DNA of 53,719 bases, taken from NCBI GenBank assembly GCA_028286525.1, contig JAQBRL010000021.1:1-53719 (forward strand). The letters run 5' to 3'. This document shows, piece by piece, positions 9,026 through 15,731 of this stretch. The notes under the pieces are model-generated. The model was given only the letters and a program-made list of their open reading frames with translations. It did no database searches and was not told where the DNA came from. The stretch is from Parcubacteria group bacterium (GTDB lineage: Bacteria; Patescibacteriota; Minisyncoccia; Phycocordibacterales; Phycocordibacteraceae). The translations under genes were made by a program, and so were the position numbers. How positions within the stretch are numbered: the stretch's first letter is position 1; each line of letters opens with the position of its first letter.

Positions 9026-9179
9026 CTTCAACTCCTTGTCTCATTCCTCTCATCAGTAAATACCTCGCAAAGCCGATGTCAAATGCGTTGCTGGCTAGAG
9101 CATGTTCGAACCTGGCTCGTATAAGAAGACCGCCACGTCTGGGGACGTGGCGGTCTGAAGAACGGCGGGGAAGTAAGTA

Positions 9180-10349
9180 TTAATGCGAACCGAGATACAT
9201 ACGCGTTATCGGACCGAAGTTACCGATGGCAGGCGATATTCCCACATTCGCTTGATATTCAGCGAGGGCTGCACGCGTCAGCGCGCCGAAATAGCCGGTA
9301 GCGCCAGCTGAAGCGAGCCTGCCGGCTGCGGAGCCGGTGCTGCGGGATATCAAGAACTGCTGCAAGAAGGTCACCTGGCCGTTACGCATCCCTTGGCGCA
9401 GATCGATTCCAATGGTCTGGACTTGGGTACTGGGCGAAGAAACCATGCCGTTCGCGCCTGTGTTGGTGTTTACGGATGTGGTCACCGTAGTCGTGGTCGG
9501 AGACGGTGAAGCAGATGACGAGGAGGATGAAGTCGTGGTCGTATTGGTCGTGGTTGTAGGAACTGGCGGCGCGACCGTCACAGCCGCGCTCGATCCTGAA
9601 GGCGCGGTAACGGCATTCGAATCGAGCGTAACCGCGGTCTGGGCGAGCGCGCGTCCTTCGAGCGACGCGCCCGTATTCAAGACGATCGCGGTCTGGTCGA
9701 GGATATTTCCTTTGAAGCTCGCGGTCGTGCCGATGGTCGTTTGTCCGGCAACTACCCAGAAGACATTCTGCGCTTGCGCACCTCCGGCAAGCACGATGTG
9801 CACGCCCGAAGCTACGTTCAAGCCCTGCGCTATCTGAAGTATCCAGACATCGTTCGCGCTTCCGGAGAGCGTAACGTCGGTCGGCACGGTCACCCCTGTG
9901 CCCCATTTATATACGCCGGGAGCGAGCGTAAGGCCCCCGATATTGCCCGCCCCGAGTTCGGTCACGTTTGGCGCGCGGCCAGCTGCGTCCGTGTAGGCGG
10001 TCTGCATGTCGAGTACGGCGGTCGTAAGGGCGGAAGGGGTAGGGTTCGCGTAGTCGGACGCATAGAGCTTTCCAGTAACGAGCGCGGATGTGGAATAGGC
10101 GCCAGCTGCAGGAAGCGTCAGCGCGAAGCCGGTGAGGTAGCTTGCGGCGGCTGGACTAAGTCCGATGTCGCCCGTGACCGAGGTAGAGCCCGTGGTCGAG
10201 ACCCCGGTCTTCGTCAGGATGGCGTAATTGCCTGCGGTCCCGAGATTGACTGCCGCCGGTCCTGCCGCGAGCGCTAGAGTAGGGATAATGAGACTGAACG
10301 CTAAAGAGACAGCGACAAGCGCTGCCGAGGCAGTAGTATTGGTTTTCAT
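9180..10349 (-). CDS. Secreted DUF3494 (ice-binding-like beta-solenoid) protein with C-terminal peptidoglycan-binding domain
   Basis: LGTAGNYAILTKTGVSTTG..TGDIGLSPAA..GNILDQTAIVLNTGASLEGRALAQTAVTL is typical of DUF3494. T/S-rich linker. C-terminal GYFGALTRAALAEYQ is PG_binding_1-like. Start taken at MKTNTT. Confidence 0.8.
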   Translation of the reverse strand: MKTNTTASAALVAVSLAFSLIIPTLALAAGPAAVNLGTAGNYAILTKTGVSTTGSTSVTGDIGLSPAAASYLTGFALTLPAAGAYSTSALVTGKLYASDYANPTPSALTTAVLDMQTAYTDAAGRAPNVTELGAGNIGGLTLAPGVYKWGTGVTVPTDVTLSGSANDVWILQIAQGLNVASGVHIVLAGGAQAQNVFWVVAGQTTIGTTASFKGNILDQTAIVLNTGASLEGRALAQTAVTLDSNAVTAPSGSSAAVTVAPPVPTTTTNTTTTSSSSSSASPSPTTTTVTTSVNTNTGANGMVSSPSTQVQTIGIDLRQGMRNGQVTFLQQFLISRSTGSAAGRLASAGATGYFGALTRAALAEYQANVGISPAIGNFGPITRMYLGSH

Positions 10350-10479
10350 ATAGTTTTTATGGGCGGATAGTCGAGCGTGCTTGCAGAGGGCAAACACCGA
10401 AGCGATGTAAAGAGGAGGCCAACGACCTTTCAGTTCGATATATTCATAACGCGTTCATCATGAAGGTTTAATGAAGAGG

Positions 10480-11289: not shown

Positions 11290-11451
11290 TCATTTCAGGA
11301 ATCTCAAGCAAAAGGCAGCAAAAACCAGGACGATACCGATGTTTACGATGAGTCGCTCCCAGAACCGATCCCTAAAGAACAGTACATCGACACCGACGAT
11401 AATGGCTATCAGAACCACGACGCAAACGGCGATGAGTATCGGCCTTGTCAT
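11290..11451 (-). CDS. 53-aa hydrophobic peptide (last cassette; not in ORF track)
   Basis: Own translation: MTRPILIAVCVVVLIAIIVGVDVLFFRDRFWERLIVNIGIVLVFAAFCLRFLK. Lies 50 nt downstream of repeat copy R7, in the same orientation as the other cassettes. Confidence 0.35.
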   Translation of the reverse strand: MTRPILIAVCVVVLIAIIVGVDVLFFRDRFWERLIVNIGIVLVFAAFCLRFLK

Positions 11452-11500
11452 TGCTTAAAACCATACCACCCCGACCCTGATAAAAGCCTAAACGAAGTCA

Positions 11501-11533
11501 TCCGTTGGATGGAGGATGTTCGAACCTTGTATA
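11501..11533 (-). repeat. Cassette repeat R7
   Basis: Minus strand: TATACAAGGTTCGAACATCCTCCATCCAACGGA. Confidence 0.75.
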
Positions 11534-11744
11534 CTATTTGAATGAAAAGCCTGAAGTTGGATAAGTCGAGAAAGCTCTTCGTGCTAAGCGTATTAATTAT
11601 CTTGGTATCTCTCGGTAAAATCCTCTTCGATCTCCATAATCATTACCTGATTTGTACCGTCCGTGAGGGAATTAAAACCTGCTGGTAAAGATCGGCTCCG
11701 CGAGTAAGCGAAGCTTGTCGCACTCGCCTCATTTCGCTCACTCT

Positions 11745-11766
11745 GCTTCGCTGGGTGAAGTGTATA
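11745..11766 (-). repeat. Cassette repeat R6 (truncated copy)
   Basis: Minus strand: TATACACTTCACCCAGCGAAGC. It lacks the GGTTCGAACATC segment. Confidence 0.5.
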
Positions 11767-11807
11767 AAAGAAGCCACCCGACAGGGCCGGGCGGCTCCAT
11801 CGGGTGG
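11763..11807 (-). terminator. Intrinsic terminator after the methyltransferase cassette
   Basis: CCACCCGA..TCGGGTGG stem followed by CTTCTTTTATAC on the minus strand. Confidence 0.65.
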
Positions 11808-11816
11808 GGTTGACCC

Positions 11817-12524
11817 TCACCGTGGTACGCAGATGTGCACATAGTCGCCGTATCCGTTCGGACGACGGTGCGGCCAGAGCTGCTTCGTTGTGACTCGAAA
11901 GTGTCGCTCGAGGAGCGGCAATCTCTTCTTGAACGACGGCTTGTACTCGTGCCTCAGCACATCATTCATAAGGATATCGACCGTCCATCCGAGAACTTCA
12001 TCAGGCGCACCTGCTTCGATGGTGTACTTGAGATATTCGTAGCCGAGCTTTGCTGCTGCAAGGCAGCGCTCCTCTTCGTTCGTGTAATCGTCGACGTAGC
12101 AGTCGGAGATGACTGCAACTCCGTCCGGCTTTAGCATTCGGGCGATGTTGGCGATGGCGACTCCCTGGTCCTCATAGGGAACGTGATGCAGAGCGCCGGT
12201 GCACAGCACCATATCGAGACCATCACGCGGGACCGCACACCAGTACCGCACGTCGCCCTGATGGAACTCGATGGGAGCATAGCGTTTCCGTCCGAATTCC
12301 ACGTATCGCTCATCGATATCAACGCCCATGAGTGAAAGGTCAGGACGAGCCTTTCCGATCTCACCCAACAGGTAGCCTGTGCCGCACATGATGTCGAGCA
12401 CCTGACATCCTTCGGGAGCCTTGAGCGCATAGTTGAGAACGGTCTGAAGGGAATCGCGATAGGGCCAGTATCCCAGGCCCCGCTCATAGATTTCAGCTTC
12501 AGGAAGCGGTTTCATCTCGGTCAT
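11817..12524 (-). CDS. Class I SAM-dependent methyltransferase
   Basis: Motif I VLDIMCGTGYLLGEIG, plus VDIDERYVEF and a LKPDGVAVISD post-I region. GGGAGGG lies 9 nt before the ATG at 12524; the track start is a TTG at 12530. Confidence 0.85.
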   Translation of the reverse strand: MTEMKPLPEAEIYERGLGYWPYRDSLQTVLNYALKAPEGCQVLDIMCGTGYLLGEIGKARPDLSLMGVDIDERYVEFGRKRYAPIEFHQGDVRYWCAVPRDGLDMVLCTGALHHVPYEDQGVAIANIARMLKPDGVAVISDCYVDDYTNEEERCLAAAKLGYEYLKYTIEAGAPDEVLGWTVDILMNDVLRHEYKPSFKKRLPLLERHFRVTTKQLWPHRRPNGYGDYVHICVPR

Positions 12525-12599
12525 TTTCAATGGCCCTCCCGAGCCGGGTTGCTGGAAAAGAACTTCGGAAGCACCATACCATTTATATATAAAATGTCA

Positions 12600-12636
12600 G
12601 CTCCTGGCTGGAAGATATTCGAACCCGGTGTGTATA
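12600..12636 (-). repeat. Cassette repeat R5
   Basis: Minus strand: TATACACACCGGGTTCGAATATCTTCCAGCCAGGAGC, followed by CTGACA-16nt-TATGGT. Confidence 0.75.
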
Positions 12637-12719
12637 AAAAGAAGATGACCGCCCTCTGGGAGTGCGGCCATCGGGGGAGCGGCGAGGAAGTTTCTCCGCC
12701 AGGTGACCGCGAGTGGGTG

Positions 12720-12917
12720 TTATTTGCCAAGATGTTCATCACGACGGACCCACTGATATTGGCAACACCCGTGGTCAGCGGTTCTGTTTCGAGCGACATC
12801 CTGAGGCGCGTCGTGACAGCTACATCCGCACGTCGTAGGGTTTCCTATGGCGTAGTCTGGTCCCTGGGTCCGTTGCGATGTCGCCTCACGCCTAAATGGC
12901 CTAAAAAGGTCAAACAT
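12720..12917 (-). CDS. 65-aa Cys-rich protein (CGCSCHD..HGCCQY motif)
   Basis: ORF 67 nt downstream of R4 and a TTGACA box, with a hairpin plus T-tract after it. Shares a cysteine motif with the 13089 ORF. Confidence 0.5.
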   Translation of the reverse strand: MFDLFRPFRREATSQRTQGPDYAIGNPTTCGCSCHDAPQDVARNRTADHGCCQYQWVRRDEHLGK

Positions 12918-12983
12918 TCTGCTAGTTCCTAACTGGTGATTCCTAAATATAGGGTACGTTGAAAAAAGCTATTGTCAAGTTTT

Positions 12984-13022
12984 GCTCCGCTGGCTGGAGG
13001 ATGTACGAACCTCTTTTGTATA
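12984..13022 (-). repeat. Cassette repeat R4
   Basis: Minus strand: TATACAAAAGAGGTTCGTACATCCTCCAGCCAGCGGAGC. Confidence 0.8.
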
Positions 13023-13057
13023 AAAAAACCGCCCCTTCCGCACGAAACGAAAGGGGT
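13022..13057 (-). terminator. Intrinsic terminator after the 137-aa Cys-rich gene
   Basis: CCCCTT..AAGGGG stem followed by CGGTTTTTTTATAC on the minus strand. Confidence 0.65.
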
Positions 13058-13088
13058 TAGGATTTTCGTCTCGCGCGGAGGTGGGCGG

Positions 13089-13502
13089 CTAGATTGAACG
13101 CACAGTTGCTATGTGACGGAACTCCTCGCTTTGGTCGAGCAGAGACTGCATACGAGCAGCCGGAGCGCAGCATTCTAGAAGCGTGCGAACGGCGGGCATG
13201 AACTCTTCATTGATGCGTTCCTCGCAGTCAGGCGAAAGGTCAGTTGCCTTCATCAGCGTTTTGACGCCGTTGCCGTAGGTAAGGTCGGACAGCGCAACAA
13301 GATTGTGCTCGTGCCCGTCAATCTCGAGGATAGATTCGACCTGCTCGCCGGCCAGATGCTGCTTGCACACTTCTTCGGCCATCGACTCCGCCACTGTACG
13401 CATCACGGAGTGATAGTGACAGCAGTGAGTGGGGCACTCCGTGCCGTCCTTGTCATGGCAGGTACAAGAACAGGGTCCTGCGAAGGGACTCATGAGCTTC
13501 AT
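13089..13502 (-). CDS. 137-aa protein with N-terminal Cys-rich motif (CSCTCHD..HCCHYH)
   Basis: GGAGA lies 6 nt before the ATG at 13502; the track start is a TTG at 13508. Cys cluster at the N-terminus, then an acidic helical body with further Cys (CC at residue ~115). Confidence 0.65.
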   Translation of the reverse strand: MKLMSPFAGPCSCTCHDKDGTECPTHCCHYHSVMRTVAESMAEEVCKQHLAGEQVESILEIDGHEHNLVALSDLTYGNGVKTLMKATDLSPDCEERINEEFMPAVRTLLECCAPAARMQSLLDQSEEFRHIATVRSI

Positions 13503-13560
13503 TGTCAATCTCCACTATTGTTGGGCCGAAGTAGTTATATCACAAATCTAGAGAATGTCT

Positions 13561-13593
13561 GCTCCGCTGGCTGGAGGATGTTCGAACTCGTTA
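13561..13593 (-). repeat. Cassette repeat R3
   Basis: Minus strand: TAACGAGTTCGAACATCCTCCAGCCAGCGGAGC. Overlaps the stop codon of the 205-aa gene. Followed by CAGACA-16nt-TATAAC. Confidence 0.8.
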
Positions 13594-14208
13594 GAAAAGA
13601 ATCAGCGACAGGATAATCATCCAATAAAAGGCGAGAATACTATAAAAACCGCGCTGGTAACCCAATTCTTCTCGATCTGTAATTAATTTGGAGGTACATA
13701 CTCCTACAAGAAAGTAGAAGGGTATGACTTGCAGGCATGAGAGGTGGGAAAAGAAGCCGAGGTTGGCTGGTAAGTAATAGAACACATACGATCCAAACAG
13801 CAGAAGAAAGAGCCCGTTGTATGCAAGTTCAAGCACAACCGCCTCGGCACCCATGATGAGTCCGGGGCGCAGGTATTCCTTCGGACTAAAGTGATGTATG
13901 GCTGTATCGTTTAGATAGCGGTAGTAGCCCAGGCCACCCCAGATGAAAAAGAAAAAATAACTTATGTCACCGCCATGCGCGGGGAAGAGGTGGTAATTCC
14001 AAAGCGGTGTACTGAAGACTATTTGCCATAAGTTGTTGGTAAGAATCTCCCCGCTTACCCCGAACAAACAGAAAACAGTGATATAGAAAGTGAGCTTTCG
14101 TAGTTCGATCTCAATGATCCTTCGCGTATACAGACAAAGACCAATATAATAAATAAGACTAAACGCCAGGGTGTACGCAAGTGCACTTATCGGCGTAACT
14201 TCTATCAT
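13591..14208 (-). CDS. Polytopic membrane protein (about 6 TM), markedly AT-rich
   Basis: 205 aa, aromatic-rich TM segments. TATACT lies 7 nt before the ATG. GC is visibly lower than the flanks. Confidence 0.7.
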   Translation of the reverse strand: MIEVTPISALAYTLAFSLIYYIGLCLYTRRIIEIELRKLTFYITVFCLFGVSGEILTNNLWQIVFSTPLWNYHLFPAHGGDISYFFFFIWGGLGYYRYLNDTAIHHFSPKEYLRPGLIMGAEAVVLELAYNGLFLLLFGSYVFYYLPANLGFFSHLSCLQVIPFYFLVGVCTSKLITDREELGYQRGFYSILAFYWMIILSLILF

Positions 14209-14242
14209 TCATTCAAGTATATCTCTACCTAACCTGGTCTGG

Positions 14243-14280
14243 GCTCCGCTGGGTGGAGGATGTTCGAACTGTTTTGCATA
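14243..14280 (-). repeat. Cassette repeat R2
   Basis: Minus strand: TATGCAAAACAGTTCGAACATCCTCCACCCAGCGGAGC. Confidence 0.8.
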
Positions 14281-14329
14281 GAAATGAAGAAGCCCACCGA
14301 GAAGTAGTGGCCTGATGGGCGACTTCTTG
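14281..14329 (-). terminator. Hairpin terminator after the 82-aa gene
   Basis: AAGAAGTCGCCCA..TGGGCTTCTT stem followed by CATTTCTAT on the minus strand. Confidence 0.5.
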
Positions 14330-14354
14330 GCGGGCGTGCTGTTCCTTGTTTCTC

Positions 14355-14603
14355 TTAGGCAAGCGGTTGGATATTGAACTGGGTGAGGACTCGGGCGGCG
14401 ACAGTGCGCAGGGCGGTGGACTGTTCGAGCTCAATTCCACGCGCCTCAGTGATGCCTTCTTCGACCACTTCCATGCCGCCGTTCTGGCTAGCAATGAAAG
14501 TATCGAAGTCTTCCTTCGACGTCCAAGTATGCCAGGCGATGACACCCTCGAAGTGACCTGCTTTGGACGTGCCGCGGACTGCAGCGATGTACTGCTCGGC
14601 CAT
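14355..14603 (-). CDS. 82-aa hypothetical protein (first cassette)
   Basis: AAAGGGAG SD 4 nt before the ATG. Lies downstream of R1 plus CTGACA-17nt-TATAAC. No family recognised. Confidence 0.6.
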   Translation of the reverse strand: MAEQYIAAVRGTSKAGHFEGVIAWHTWTSKEDFDTFIASQNGGMEVVEEGITEARGIELEQSTALRTVAARVLTQFNIQPLA

Positions 14604-14656
14604 AGGACTCCCTTTCTGTAACCGTTATAGTTATATCACACTTCTAAAATATGTCA

Positions 14657-14695
14657 GCTCCGCTGGCTGGAGGATGTTTGAACCTGTTTTGTATA
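14657..14695 (-). repeat. Cassette repeat R1
   Basis: Minus strand: TATACAAAACAGGTTCAAACATCCTCCAGCCAGCGGAGC. Confidence 0.8.
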
Positions 14696-14723
14696 AAGCA
14701 GACACCGCTCGAGGCGGTGTCTG
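14691..14723 (-). terminator. Intrinsic terminator (perfect 11-bp stem)
   Basis: GCAGACACCGC-CTCGA-GCGGTGTCTGC followed by TTTATAC on the minus strand. Confidence 0.75.
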
Positions 14724-14766
14724 CTAGCCCAGAGTGTGGGGTCACCATCGCGGGAGGACGCGCACG

Positions 14767-14794
14767 TGTATAGTCGCTAAAACAAAGGTGTCAA
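14767..14794 (-). promoter_or_regulatory. Sigma-70-type promoter (TTGACA-16nt-TATACA)
   Basis: Perfect -35 hexamer at 14789-14794 (rc) and TATACA at 14767-14772 (rc). Only about 70 nt separates it from the terminator at 14691-14723. Confidence 0.5.
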
Positions 14795-14841
14795 TACAAA
14801 TCCACAGATAGGGACGATTTATACTCCCAAAATCCTATTCT

Positions 14842-14963
14842 GCTCCGCGGGCAGGACACTCGAGCTACACTCGCTGTCCACTCTGCGGATTTTGCTTCGC
14901 AAAATGCTCGCATGAGTTTCTTCGAATCCTACACGAACGCGTTCCAGGCGTACTCTGCGGAGC
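14842..14963 (-). pseudogene. Scrambled tRNA-Asn-derived segment (att-like duplication)
   Basis: Ends with the 15-nt GCTCCGCGGGCAGGA identical to the tRNA 3' end and starts with GCTCCGCAG (the tRNA 5' end with 1 change). Contains an inverted AGGATTCGAA and a 10-nt direct repeat ACTCTGCGGA. No cloverleaf. Confidence 0.5.
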
Positions 14964-14964
14964 T

Positions 14965-15002
14965 GAGAAACGCAAAATCGCCCGTTCAGGGCGATTGCGT
15001 TT
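14965..15002 (-). terminator. Intrinsic terminator after tRNA-Asn
   Basis: AAACGCAATCGCCC-TGAAC-GGGCGATTTTGCGTTT followed by CTC on the minus strand. Confidence 0.65.
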
Positions 15003-15050
15003 GAAAACTAAGCTCCGCGGGCAGGATTCGAACCTGCGACCGATCGATTA

Positions 15051-15605
15051 CACGTATCTAATCATTTCTGAAAAGGGTGGACTATATCATCGCCCGTTCC
15101 TAGGAACTGGGGCGGGAGGCGCTTCCGATCGCTTTCGCGACAGTACTCCCTTGCGGGATAGTCTCTGAACCTTCAATCCGATTCCTCGGAAAGCTTGGCT
15201 GCTGATTACCCTCGTCTTTCTCGTTAGGGCTTCCAGCAATTCACCTCCTTTTCATCCCTGAATTACTTCTAGGGAGCTGCGTAATGTTGTCGTGCACTTC
15301 GGCGTGGCAGTTAGCGCATAGGAGGACGCACTTTTCCAATTCGGCGCGCATCTTTTCCCACGATCTGGTGAGACCTCGAGAAGAAAGACCGAAATCCTTC
15401 TTTGAGGGATCAATATGATGGAAAACCATTGCGCGCCTGCATCGGGCGTATCCGCATACAATGCATTTGCCGCCGCCGTACTCGAGAGCCATGTCGCGAA
15501 GTTTCTTTCGTCGCTTCGCAACCGCTTTTTTCATGTACTCTGCACGATCAGCATAGGTTCGTGTCTCTGGCATATACACATGAGTATACCAGGGACACAC
15601 GTACC
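15051..15605 (-). mobile_element. Group I intron (IC3-like), 555 nt
   Basis: 5' exon ends in U and the intron ends in G. The core matches remembered Azoarcus/Tetrahymena cores: CAGCAGCCAAGCTT (15191-15204 rc), GAAGGTTCAGAGACTA (15159-15174 rc) and GATATAGTCC (15079-15088 rc). Confidence 0.8.
15241..15573 (-). CDS. HNH homing endonuclease encoded inside the intron
   Basis: CIVCGY..MVFHHIDP..LLCANCHAEVH gives the CxxC..HH..CxxCH HNH signature. Start taken at MPETRTY, 33 nt into the intron. Confidence 0.8.
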   Translation of the reverse strand: MPETRTYADRAEYMKKAVAKRRKKLRDMALEYGGGKCIVCGYARCRRAMVFHHIDPSKKDFGLSSRGLTRSWEKMRAELEKCVLLCANCHAEVHDNITQLPRSNSGMKRR

Positions 15606-15731
15606 ACAGTCGACTGCTCTACCGCTGAGCTACCGCGGAGCTTAGTTTTCAACCTCTGAACATGCCCTCCGATGAGGGCTTCCGTATTCTAGCTGAAAAG
15701 CACGAAACGGCAACGGGTATACTGCGAGGAT

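Follow-up and report, generated by a model that had tools for sequence, protein, structure and literature searches.

A 27-nt repeat beside tRNA-Asn in a Parcubacteria group bacterium, a probable serine recombinase half-site bounding integron-like gene cassettes

Here, we examined a 53,719-nt stretch of DNA (the window; contig JAQBRL010000021.1, assembly GCA_028286525.1) from a Parcubacteria group bacterium, a member of the Candidate Phyla Radiation (CPR, or Patescibacteria), in which a 27-nt repeat recurs on the minus strand downstream of a tRNA-Asn gene and separates small genes from one another. We think it quite probable that this repeat is the element-side left half-site of a large serine recombinase (LSR) family of small integrative elements in CPR bacteria, and that the window holds an integron-like row of recombinase-less cassettes that arose by serial insertion at a single tRNA-Asn hot spot. 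A reading made from the sequence only had described the layout as integron-like, with self-contained cassettes that bring their own promoters, and our findings support that description; it had not mentioned that the repeat is an LSR half-site of the element (P) type inside which the recombinase gene ends, that a group I intron splits the tRNA gene, or that the array starts after a structured element, here called X.

The feature is real and strongly non-random. Four copies of the 27-mer GTTCGAACATCCTCCAGCCAGCGGAGC with no more than one mismatch were retrieved by motif scan, all on the minus strand: copy 1 at 14657-14683 (a P-type half-site reading GTTCAAACATCCTCCAGCCAGCGGAGC), copy 2 at 14243-14269, copy 3 at 13561-13587, identical to the consensus used, and copy 4 at 12984-13010. 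With up to three mismatches allowed, the chance expectation was 0.00 in 100 shuffles, and all four occurrences of the octamer GTTCGAAC in the window fall inside repeat copies. Profile scans on the same strand added copy 5, degenerate and with a 1-nt deletion (12600-12624), a degenerate copy 7 (11499-11525, GTTCGAACATCCTCCATCCAACGGATG) and an eighth, likewise degenerate, at 9085-9111, outside the interval 11290-14723; a further, truncated repeat keeps the right half only (11745-11766). The eighth copy has a terminator before it and TTGACA and an 81-aa open reading frame (ORF) after it, and the island therefore reaches at least to about 8.7 kb. Window copies are confined to 9.0-14.7 kb, co-oriented and downstream of tRNA-Asn(GUU), the proximal ones intact and the distal ones decayed. 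The repeat coordinates, minus strand and single orientation reported by the sequence-only reading were reproduced, as was the kinship it saw between the repeat and the tRNA-Asn 3' end, which share GTTCGAA and CGGAGC. Its figure of six inserted nucleotides, on the other hand, has to be corrected to five: from GTTCGAA to GGAGC, the repeat measures 27 nt and the tRNA segment 22 nt.

Among 185,579 species genomes scanned, the motif turned up in ten contigs, nine of them labelled as Patescibacteria or subgroups thereof and one, a short contig, as a cyanobacterium. A separate metagenome scan gave 89 further stretches, and a viral contig scan with a 22-mer gave no match, and so no free phage with the site. 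In total, 222 repeat copies are distributed over about 100 loci (designated by L-numbers), up to ten per locus and strictly co-oriented within each. Contigs of 380, 528 and 623 kb hold the motif in a single stretch each, and it is therefore not a dispersed repeat; genome-wide occurrence, which the earlier reading had named as grounds for abandoning its proposal, was not seen, and a dispersed element of the REP or MITE (miniature inverted-repeat transposable element) kind was rejected because there is one locus per genome and the window copies all lie within the one island. The tRNA-Asn(GTT) gene is upstream on the same strand in about 25 loci. No locus that retains this flank lacks it, and other tRNAs are all but absent there. 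The 100 inter-repeat intervals have a median spacing of 797 bp, and 58% contain a single ORF; their 161 ORFs fall into 137 clusters, with ORFans, NUDIX proteins, methyltransferases, the YafQ toxin and the CopG antitoxin among them. No integrase figures among the top 25 of the 65 Pfam families matching 137 cassette proteins. Tandem arrays at tRNA-Asn with some units lacking a recombinase are found in the window (eight copies), L004, L007, L012, L072 and L093, and the arrays of L007 and L008 match the window design of terminator, TTTATAC, repeat, TTGACA...TATAAT and ORF. The idea that the repeat is the 3' end of a separate RNA gene was rejected, the upstream sequence being unconserved and coding regions reaching the motif. 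One further locus, L053 (1-5124), has a 120-nt terminal direct overlap and five or six repeats with window-like promoter-ORF-terminator units, and its two opposite-strand ORFs (259 and 83 aa) have no Pfam or PHROG match; judging from its layout, it may be a 5.0 kb circle, either a small plasmid or several cassettes excised together, unless the overlap stems from assembly.

The link to a recombinase lies in the coding content of the repeat. Its reverse complement, read in frame, gives ..(W)LRWVEDVRT, the C-terminal tail of an LSR. When the ORFs of the loci were clustered, a 583-aa LSR ending ...PDWLRWVEDVRTYCGETVTSSI emerged in L041, and the LSRs of L041, L074 and L043 carry Resolvase, Recombinase and Zn_ribbon_recom domains and match the PHROG 95 integrase. 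In L074 and L043, the LSR gene is on the opposite strand, directly against tRNA-Asn and overlapping it with its 3' end, such that the tail is encoded by the tRNA complement (..LLRRQDSNLRPID; the full L074 tail reads ...ILLRRQDSNLRPID). The repeat closes the far end of these 8-9 kb elements and is followed by the tRNA terminator and X, the very flank that comes directly after the tRNA in the window. In L091, the same LSR 3' end follows the repeat (..LLRWVEDVRTCVN), the gene fragment ending ...ILLRWVEDVRTCVN, and the DNA right of GGAGC is identical to that of L074. The tRNA end and the repeat are thus alternative left partners of one site. The family is large, with more than 4000 homologues at E<=1e-20; among the best 120 of these, 25 have tails of the tRNA type and about 15 of the P type, including variants such as LLRLYDEIRT.

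The LSR reading frame spans its own attachment site, and its last ten or so residues read ..RQDSNLRPID beside the tRNA and ..WVEDVRTCVN beside the repeat (L074 78-1691, L091 33-389), while many of the best 120 homologues end right at ..LLRG/E/R. Going by these sequences, the change of tail may act as a switch dependent on the state of integration. Intact elements also have a conserved gene set beside the LSR (L074 1693-3910, L043 4636-6853, L091 4189-5642). Its members are a protein type of about 183 aa, encoded twice in L074 and L043 and once in L091, another of 267-289 aa and, in L074 and L043 only, a third of 83 aa. Pfam and PHROGs gave no informative match for the set, which may be a replication or regulation module.

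The site architecture agrees with the arrangement of the genes. A logo of 138 unique copies shows a conserved block of exactly 27 nt with sharp edges, and the variable positions are mostly third codon positions or conservative in the LSR frame (-28, -19 and -13; position -11 gives V, L or M). The heptamer GTTCGAA occupies -27 to -21 in the repeat and -22 to -16 in the tRNA end, and is thus 5 bp farther from the crossover in the repeat. Serine integrases have a 7-8 bp motif for the zinc ribbon domain in both attP and attB, 5 bp nearer the centre in attB (Rutherford et al. 2013, PMC3783163). The shift seen here matches this rule and therefore marks the repeat as the P-type and the tRNA end as the B-type (host) half-site; in fact, it is because of this relation that the repeat looks like a tRNA end with extra bases.

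The two ends also exchange. In a catalogue of junctions, four independent right-flank families occur both after the tRNA and after the repeat, a single right flank is joined to up to four different repeat-bearing left flanks, and polymorphic bases within the repeat travel with the left flank. Breakpoints map to ..GGAGC, give or take a few nucleotides, and inter-locus homology breaks within 10 nt of the repeat in 11% of cases, against 1.4% expected. Cassettes common to unrelated contexts (78-96% identity) are bounded at the crossover on both sides. The clearest case is offered by L035 and L039, which have upstream gene, tRNA (100% identical) and X in synteny: L035 has the empty site, with the tRNA joined to terminator and X, and L039 has 524 nt more, exactly between tRNA end and terminator. 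This insert consists of a TTGACA-18-TAATAC promoter, a 133-aa ORF, a terminator and the repeat, with no recombinase, and is a unit of the same design as the window cassettes. Whole elements and, in this case, a single cassette have thus been inserted exactly at the ..GGAGC crossover. The sequence-only reading had taken the repeat to mark junctions of site-specific insertion and had looked to related genomes for a decision; L039 and L035, together with the four flank families, bear it out, cassette content differing between relatives with breakpoints exactly at the repeat. General homologous recombination, by which DNA of related strains would be swapped in through the 27-nt identities with no dedicated recombinase, would place breakpoints at the repeat equally well, and CPR bacteria commonly have competence genes. 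We regard it as improbable nonetheless: RecA-dependent exchange has its lower limit at about 27 nt, exchange also occurs between repeat and tRNA end, which share just their last ~7 nt contiguously, and recognition is site-specific to judge by the 5-bp shift and by the overlap with the LSR gene.

A more serious alternative is that every repeat is an attR scar left by an LSR element of its own, once full-size (7-9 kb), whose recombinase and most of whose cargo were later deleted in a streamlining genome, the cassettes never having moved singly. Intact elements of such a design exist (L074, L043), LSR C-terminal fragments adjoin the repeat in L006, L065, L032 and L074 (at 10014), the distal copies of the window are decayed, and 23 copies are followed by a module of ~60-75 nt (a hairpin and a second GTTCGAAC) with spacing as in the LSR 3' coding region; this second octamer, at +47 to +69 in 21 of the 23 copies, coincides with the FEP codons of the LSR or with what is left of them. 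Yet the L039 insert starts with a -35 box exactly at the crossover, ends with the repeat and holds no recombinase remnant, bounds for which a random deletion would need to start precisely at the tRNA end. In addition, promoters begin near the crossover far more often than expected (see below), and the cassettes common to several genomes are bounded by it on either side. We thus judge the deletion model unlikely and favor insertion of the cassettes as units.

Under the insertion model, the host would offer as its B-type left half-site the tRNA-Asn 3' end or its copy in X, and strands would be exchanged at or just after the shared ...CGGAGC. Integration would join the incoming DNA directly to the end of the tRNA or of X and leave the P arm at its far end. 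Repeated insertion at this single site, or accretion, would therefore give a one-directional row in which each unit ends with a terminator and a P arm, and newer insertions beside the tRNA or X end would push older units outward. The single-gene units of the window have no recombinase, and their cassettes are therefore either mobilized by an LSR acting in trans or now fixed. What the loci show is that the repeat is an arm of an LSR site, where strands cross over, that tRNA end and repeat are interchangeable as left partners and that relatives differ at the level of cassettes; we infer that single cassettes can move in trans, presumably as circles, with specificity residing in the left arms alone.

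Several observations weigh against this model. No LSR gene or fragment was found by tblastn in the window, in keeping with the recombinase-free window of the earlier reading, and any activity in this organism is therefore putative. At canonical LSR sites both halves are required, and here the reaction would take place on sites made of a repeat and an arbitrary flank. Furthermore, the canonical products attL and attR do not recombine further without a directionality factor, so that for serial insertion either the rules must be relaxed or the P' arm must have been lost beforehand. A test for dyad symmetry failed, the right half-sites being almost unconserved (at most 0.44 bit at each of positions +1 to +45), and a symmetric right half-site, with a second GTTCGAAC at about +20 to +27, is absent. 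In phage serine integrases, both half-sites are recognizable (PMC3783163), whereas here the left arms alone are conserved. No excised cassette circle was seen, the overlap in L053 being perhaps an assembly effect, and the two intact LSR elements, in which the repeat does not recur internally, do not explain how the mini-cassettes arose. Finally, the gradient of repeat decay is not general along arrays, none being seen in L004, L007 or L072.

We put forward more tentatively, as a possibility that we would not yet favor, that this is the serine recombinase counterpart of the integron in CPR bacteria: the tRNA-Asn end or X would be the fixed capture site, the cassettes would be self-expressing and bear the P arm, and an LSR acting in trans would read the left arms only, allowing repeatable capture and release without a directionality factor. 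If left arms alone matter, every product again consists of a B-type and a P-type arm, so the reaction could be iterated. A true integron, or a cluster of attC sites lacking an integron-integrase (CALIN), is on the other hand hardly credible. The cassettes are one-directional, mostly of a single ORF and about 0.8 kb, and their ORFan, toxin-antitoxin, NUDIX and methyltransferase content is what one would expect of integrons. However, no GTTRRRY/RYYYAAC core pair is present in the 27-mer (by eye, with no formal attC model), GTTCGAA does not fit GTTRRRY, and the hairpins before the repeat are terminator-like, unconserved in sequence and outside the conserved block. No tyrosine recombinase of the IntI type was found in the window flanks, nor among the families most shared across the flanks of ~100 loci; the cassettes carry their own promoters, and the site is tied to a serine recombinase.

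The promoters deserve separate consideration. Terminator-like hairpins with a T-run and ATAC stand ahead of most repeat copies in a terminator scan, as the earlier reading had observed in describing hairpins that end in TTTATAC. The promoters that it placed after most repeats stand in part: sigma-70-like promoters directly after copies 1 and 3 (both TATAAC with a TG extension) and after copy 5 are clear, and those after copies 2 and 4 are weaker. Family-wide, a sigma-70-like site scoring 10/12 or better starts no farther than 12 nt from the crossover in 24 of the 138 unique right flanks, against a mean of 0.9 and a maximum of 4 in shuffles, and these promoters presumably fire. The gap between repeat and -35 box ranges from -1 to +6, a spread that speaks for promoter proximity and not for a fixed protein-binding arrangement. 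This bears on the proposal, also made from the sequence only, that the repeat is an operator or activator site abutting the -35 box of a regulon of small genes. A sigma-70-like -35 box does begin 0-6 nt past the motif in the window and in about a fifth of copies, and an LSR bound at the motif could incidentally affect the promoter. Nevertheless, each genome has a single locus, outside which contigs of 380-620 kb are free of the motif, the spacing is variable as described, and the variable positions of the repeat track the codon phase of the recombinase tail. Moreover, most copies in other genomes lead not into a promoter but into a terminator, X or a recombinase 3' end. The shared-operator regulon did not survive this comparison, and we hold an operator function to be very improbable. 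A tRNA island of a tyrosine integrase was likewise rejected, the recombinase beside the tRNA being of the serine type and the far-end repeat not an exact tRNA copy.

Among known systems, the kind is that of accretion islands; what is new are the CPR hosts, the P-arm repeat and the single-gene units. Our literature search found no description of such an LSR cassette system in CPR bacteria. Staphylococcal SCCmec and pseudo-SCC elements at rlmH (orfX) have CcrAB or CcrC LSRs, tandem elements, direct repeats and ccr-less elements that can be moved in trans. They resemble the present system in LSR insertion at the 3' end of a conserved gene, in tandem elements and in direct repeats, but they differ in having a protein-coding target, elements of tens of kilobases, no tRNA mimicry and no single-gene cassettes. 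The closest system is that of the ssrA islands of Dehalococcoides, where a tRNA-like gene has attL at its 3' end and, directly adjoining on the reverse strand, an LSR of ~540 aa. Several islands follow in tandem with short direct repeats between them, and about half of the islands, without an integration module, are regarded as cis-mobilizable or accreted (2011, PMC3146451). LSR against attL, tandem islands with direct repeats, and units without integrase are thus common to both. The target, however, is tmRNA in Dehalococcoides (Chloroflexota) and tRNA-Asn in CPR bacteria; the direct repeat is there a 20-bp copy of the target's 3' end and here a P arm, 5 nt longer and with other internal bases. 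In fact, a test of the array as one of plain accretion, with the repeat a copy of the target 3' end, failed, X alone having an exact 15-nt copy. Dehalococcoides units span many kilobases and carry a six-gene integration module, whereas a unit described here is mostly one gene, 0.4-1.1 kb in length, equipped with promoter and terminator, and a recombinase gene that reads across its site is a further difference. Integrons and CALINs share with our arrays the one hot spot, the one orientation, one-ORF cassettes of ~0.8 kb, a diverse and mostly unknown content, toxin-antitoxin pairs and a site at the cassette 3' end. Yet their IntI is a tyrosine recombinase, their attC is folded, single-stranded and conserved in structure, and their cassettes are promoterless and rely on Pc; here, the site is a sequence-conserved 27-mer, the recombinase is of the serine class and promoter and terminator are on the cassette. 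Prochlorococcus tycheposons, of which 910 of 937 use tyrosine recombinases and which use several tRNA genes (Hackl et al., bioRxiv 10.1101/2020.12.28.424599), are alike in having a streamlined genome, flexible genes in tRNA islands, new elements that push older ones inward, scattered remnants and degraded integrases, and unlike in that their remnants are true partial tRNAs and their elements have replication modules.

Genetic tools for CPR bacteria are all but lacking, their genomes are tiny and few mobile elements have been recognized in them. One insertion hot spot, conserved across much of the phylum and with its site arms, crossover point and recombinase family now defined, would explain where their flexible genes lie and how they are exchanged, and the tRNA-Asn end as attB, the 27-mer as attP and the integrase form a possible genetic tool. 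The hundreds of natural sites fit the 5-bp-shift model of attP/attB discrimination. If cassettes do move singly, this would be an independent evolutionary route to the integron idea, through another recombinase class.

At the head of the window array stands the tRNA-Asn(GUU) gene, at 15013-15639 on the minus strand, which the earlier reading had correctly named. It was recognized by Rfam, by sequence reading and by ARAGORN, which finds no tRNA at the locus in the unspliced window and a tRNA-Asn(gtt) once the exons are joined; the miss is due to a group I intron that splits the gene. Sequence reading gives a 5' exon at 15606-15639 and a 3' exon at 15013-15050, the 3' end of which (GGTTCGAATCCTGCCCGCGGAGC, minus strand) would be the B-type half-site. 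Between the exons lies the 555-nt intron (15051-15605, minus strand; Rfam RF00028, 66.5 bits, matched at 15305-15058), with an ORF at 15241-15600 on the same strand that has a weak Pfam HNH match. The intron is placed in the anticodon loop, between positions 35 and 36, and homologous HNH ORFs or introns occur at tRNA-Asn in L002, L005, L016, L018, L052, L059, L070 and L086. Same-sample unitigs break precisely where exons and intron meet, on either side (L001 starts at 15050 and L106 at 15606), a pattern suggesting that intron-plus and intron-minus alleles coexist in the population.

The tRNA is followed by its terminator hairpin (14976-14996, minus strand, from the terminator scan), a part of the ancestral right flank (B') whose counterpart of terminator plus X comes after the repeat in other loci. 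X itself is a structured, tRNA-like element of 122 nt (14842-14963, minus strand), delimited by sequence comparison, folding and covariation. Its 3' end reads TCCTGCCCGCGGAGC, and the last 15 nt are the exact duplicate of the tRNA-Asn 3' end. Fold z-scores range from -2.9 to -6.1; covariation is 0.428 against 0.168 in shuffles, a value reached by none of 500, with slid controls at 0.11 or below. Across loci, X measures 120-145 nt and forms seven helices with 92.5% of cells paired. In its shape, the acceptor stem and the T-arm of a tRNA-Asn seem recognizable; the T-loop has two extra hairpins within it, a single hairpin replaces the D and anticodon arms, and one hairpin has a conserved xUGUAAx loop. 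X also lies downstream of tRNA-Asn in L003, L013, L015, L031, L039, L046, L048, L063, L071, L073, L076 and L087. Rfam, in E-value mode, gave no match to it, and a tmRNA identity, for X and for the repeat alike, was rejected, ARAGORN finding no tmRNA in ~100 loci. The window array begins after X rather than directly after tRNA-Asn, and from its sequence the X 3' end appears to serve as a second B-type arm at this point. At the distal side, by-eye comparison with L005 and L073 outlined a module, Z (11690-11744, minus strand), that reads ...GAGGCGAGTGCGACAAGCTTCGCTTACTCGCGGAGC and ends ...CTTACTCGCGGAGC, with a tRNA-end-like CGCGGAGC. Z-like sequence comes after the truncated repeat in the window, after a repeat in L005 and after X in L073, and Z is thus probably an ancestral distal flank with a further B-like end; the truncated repeat at 11745-11766 is probably, by the same comparison, the oldest attR-type junction of the window array.

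Between X and copy 1 lies a first unit (14684-14841, minus strand, from sequence reading) with a promoter-like TTGACA-16-TATACA, ~70 nt, a strong terminator hairpin and TTTATAC. It has no ORF of at least 40 aa on the minus strand clear of X, and may represent a small RNA or an emptied cassette. The cassettes that follow are all on the minus strand, and the small co-oriented ORFs that the sequence-only reading had placed between the repeats were found again. Cassette 1 (14270-14656) has a CTGACA-16-TATAAC promoter, an 82-aa ORF (14355-14603) and a terminator-like hairpin; cassette 2 (13588-14242) encodes a 205-aa multi-pass membrane protein (ORF 13591-14208); cassette 3 (13011-13560) has a CAGACA-16-TATAAC promoter, a 137/139-aa Cys-rich ORF (13089-13508) and a terminator (13032-13056). 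Cassette 4 (12625-12983) carries a 65-aa Cys-rich ORF (12720-12917) with a terminator, and cassette 5 (11767-12599) a CTGACA-16-TATGGT promoter, an S-adenosylmethionine (SAM)-dependent methyltransferase (11817-12530, 235/237 aa) and a terminator (11770-11798). A 53-aa transmembrane ORF from the ORF list (11290-11451) lies downstream of copy 7. Of these ORFs (82, 205, 137/139, 65, 235/237 and 53 aa), the methyltransferase alone was matched by Pfam, which thus supports the earlier assignment. G+C content is 0.50-0.55 in the island and 0.57-0.60 in its surroundings, and the flanks of the window hold fmt, def, murA, glutaredoxin and hpf, as identified from ORF translations and Pfam labels.

The window cassette proteins have no homologues in the other arrays with the repeat, and exact look-ups of the 82-aa, glutaredoxin and methyltransferase proteins returned same-sample unitigs alone (SRR13312994), broken at repeats and intron junctions. 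In the distal island, between degenerate repeats, a 405-aa secreted protein (9180-10397, minus strand) was matched by Pfam to an ice-binding-like domain (E=2.9e-76) and, weakly, to a peptidoglycan-binding one. A 424-aa reverse transcriptase (RVT_1) stands directly before the repeat in L025 (1658-2932) and also in L057, L082 and L088. For the 205-aa membrane protein, about 50 homologues were found in mixed core and island contexts. One homologue belongs to an array whose motif is a variant: in L101 (4460-6545), near this homologue, a variant repeat family (GTTCGAACATCCTCCCAAACTACGAGC and relatives) lies between small genes, which suggests other recombinase subfamilies with P arms of their own.

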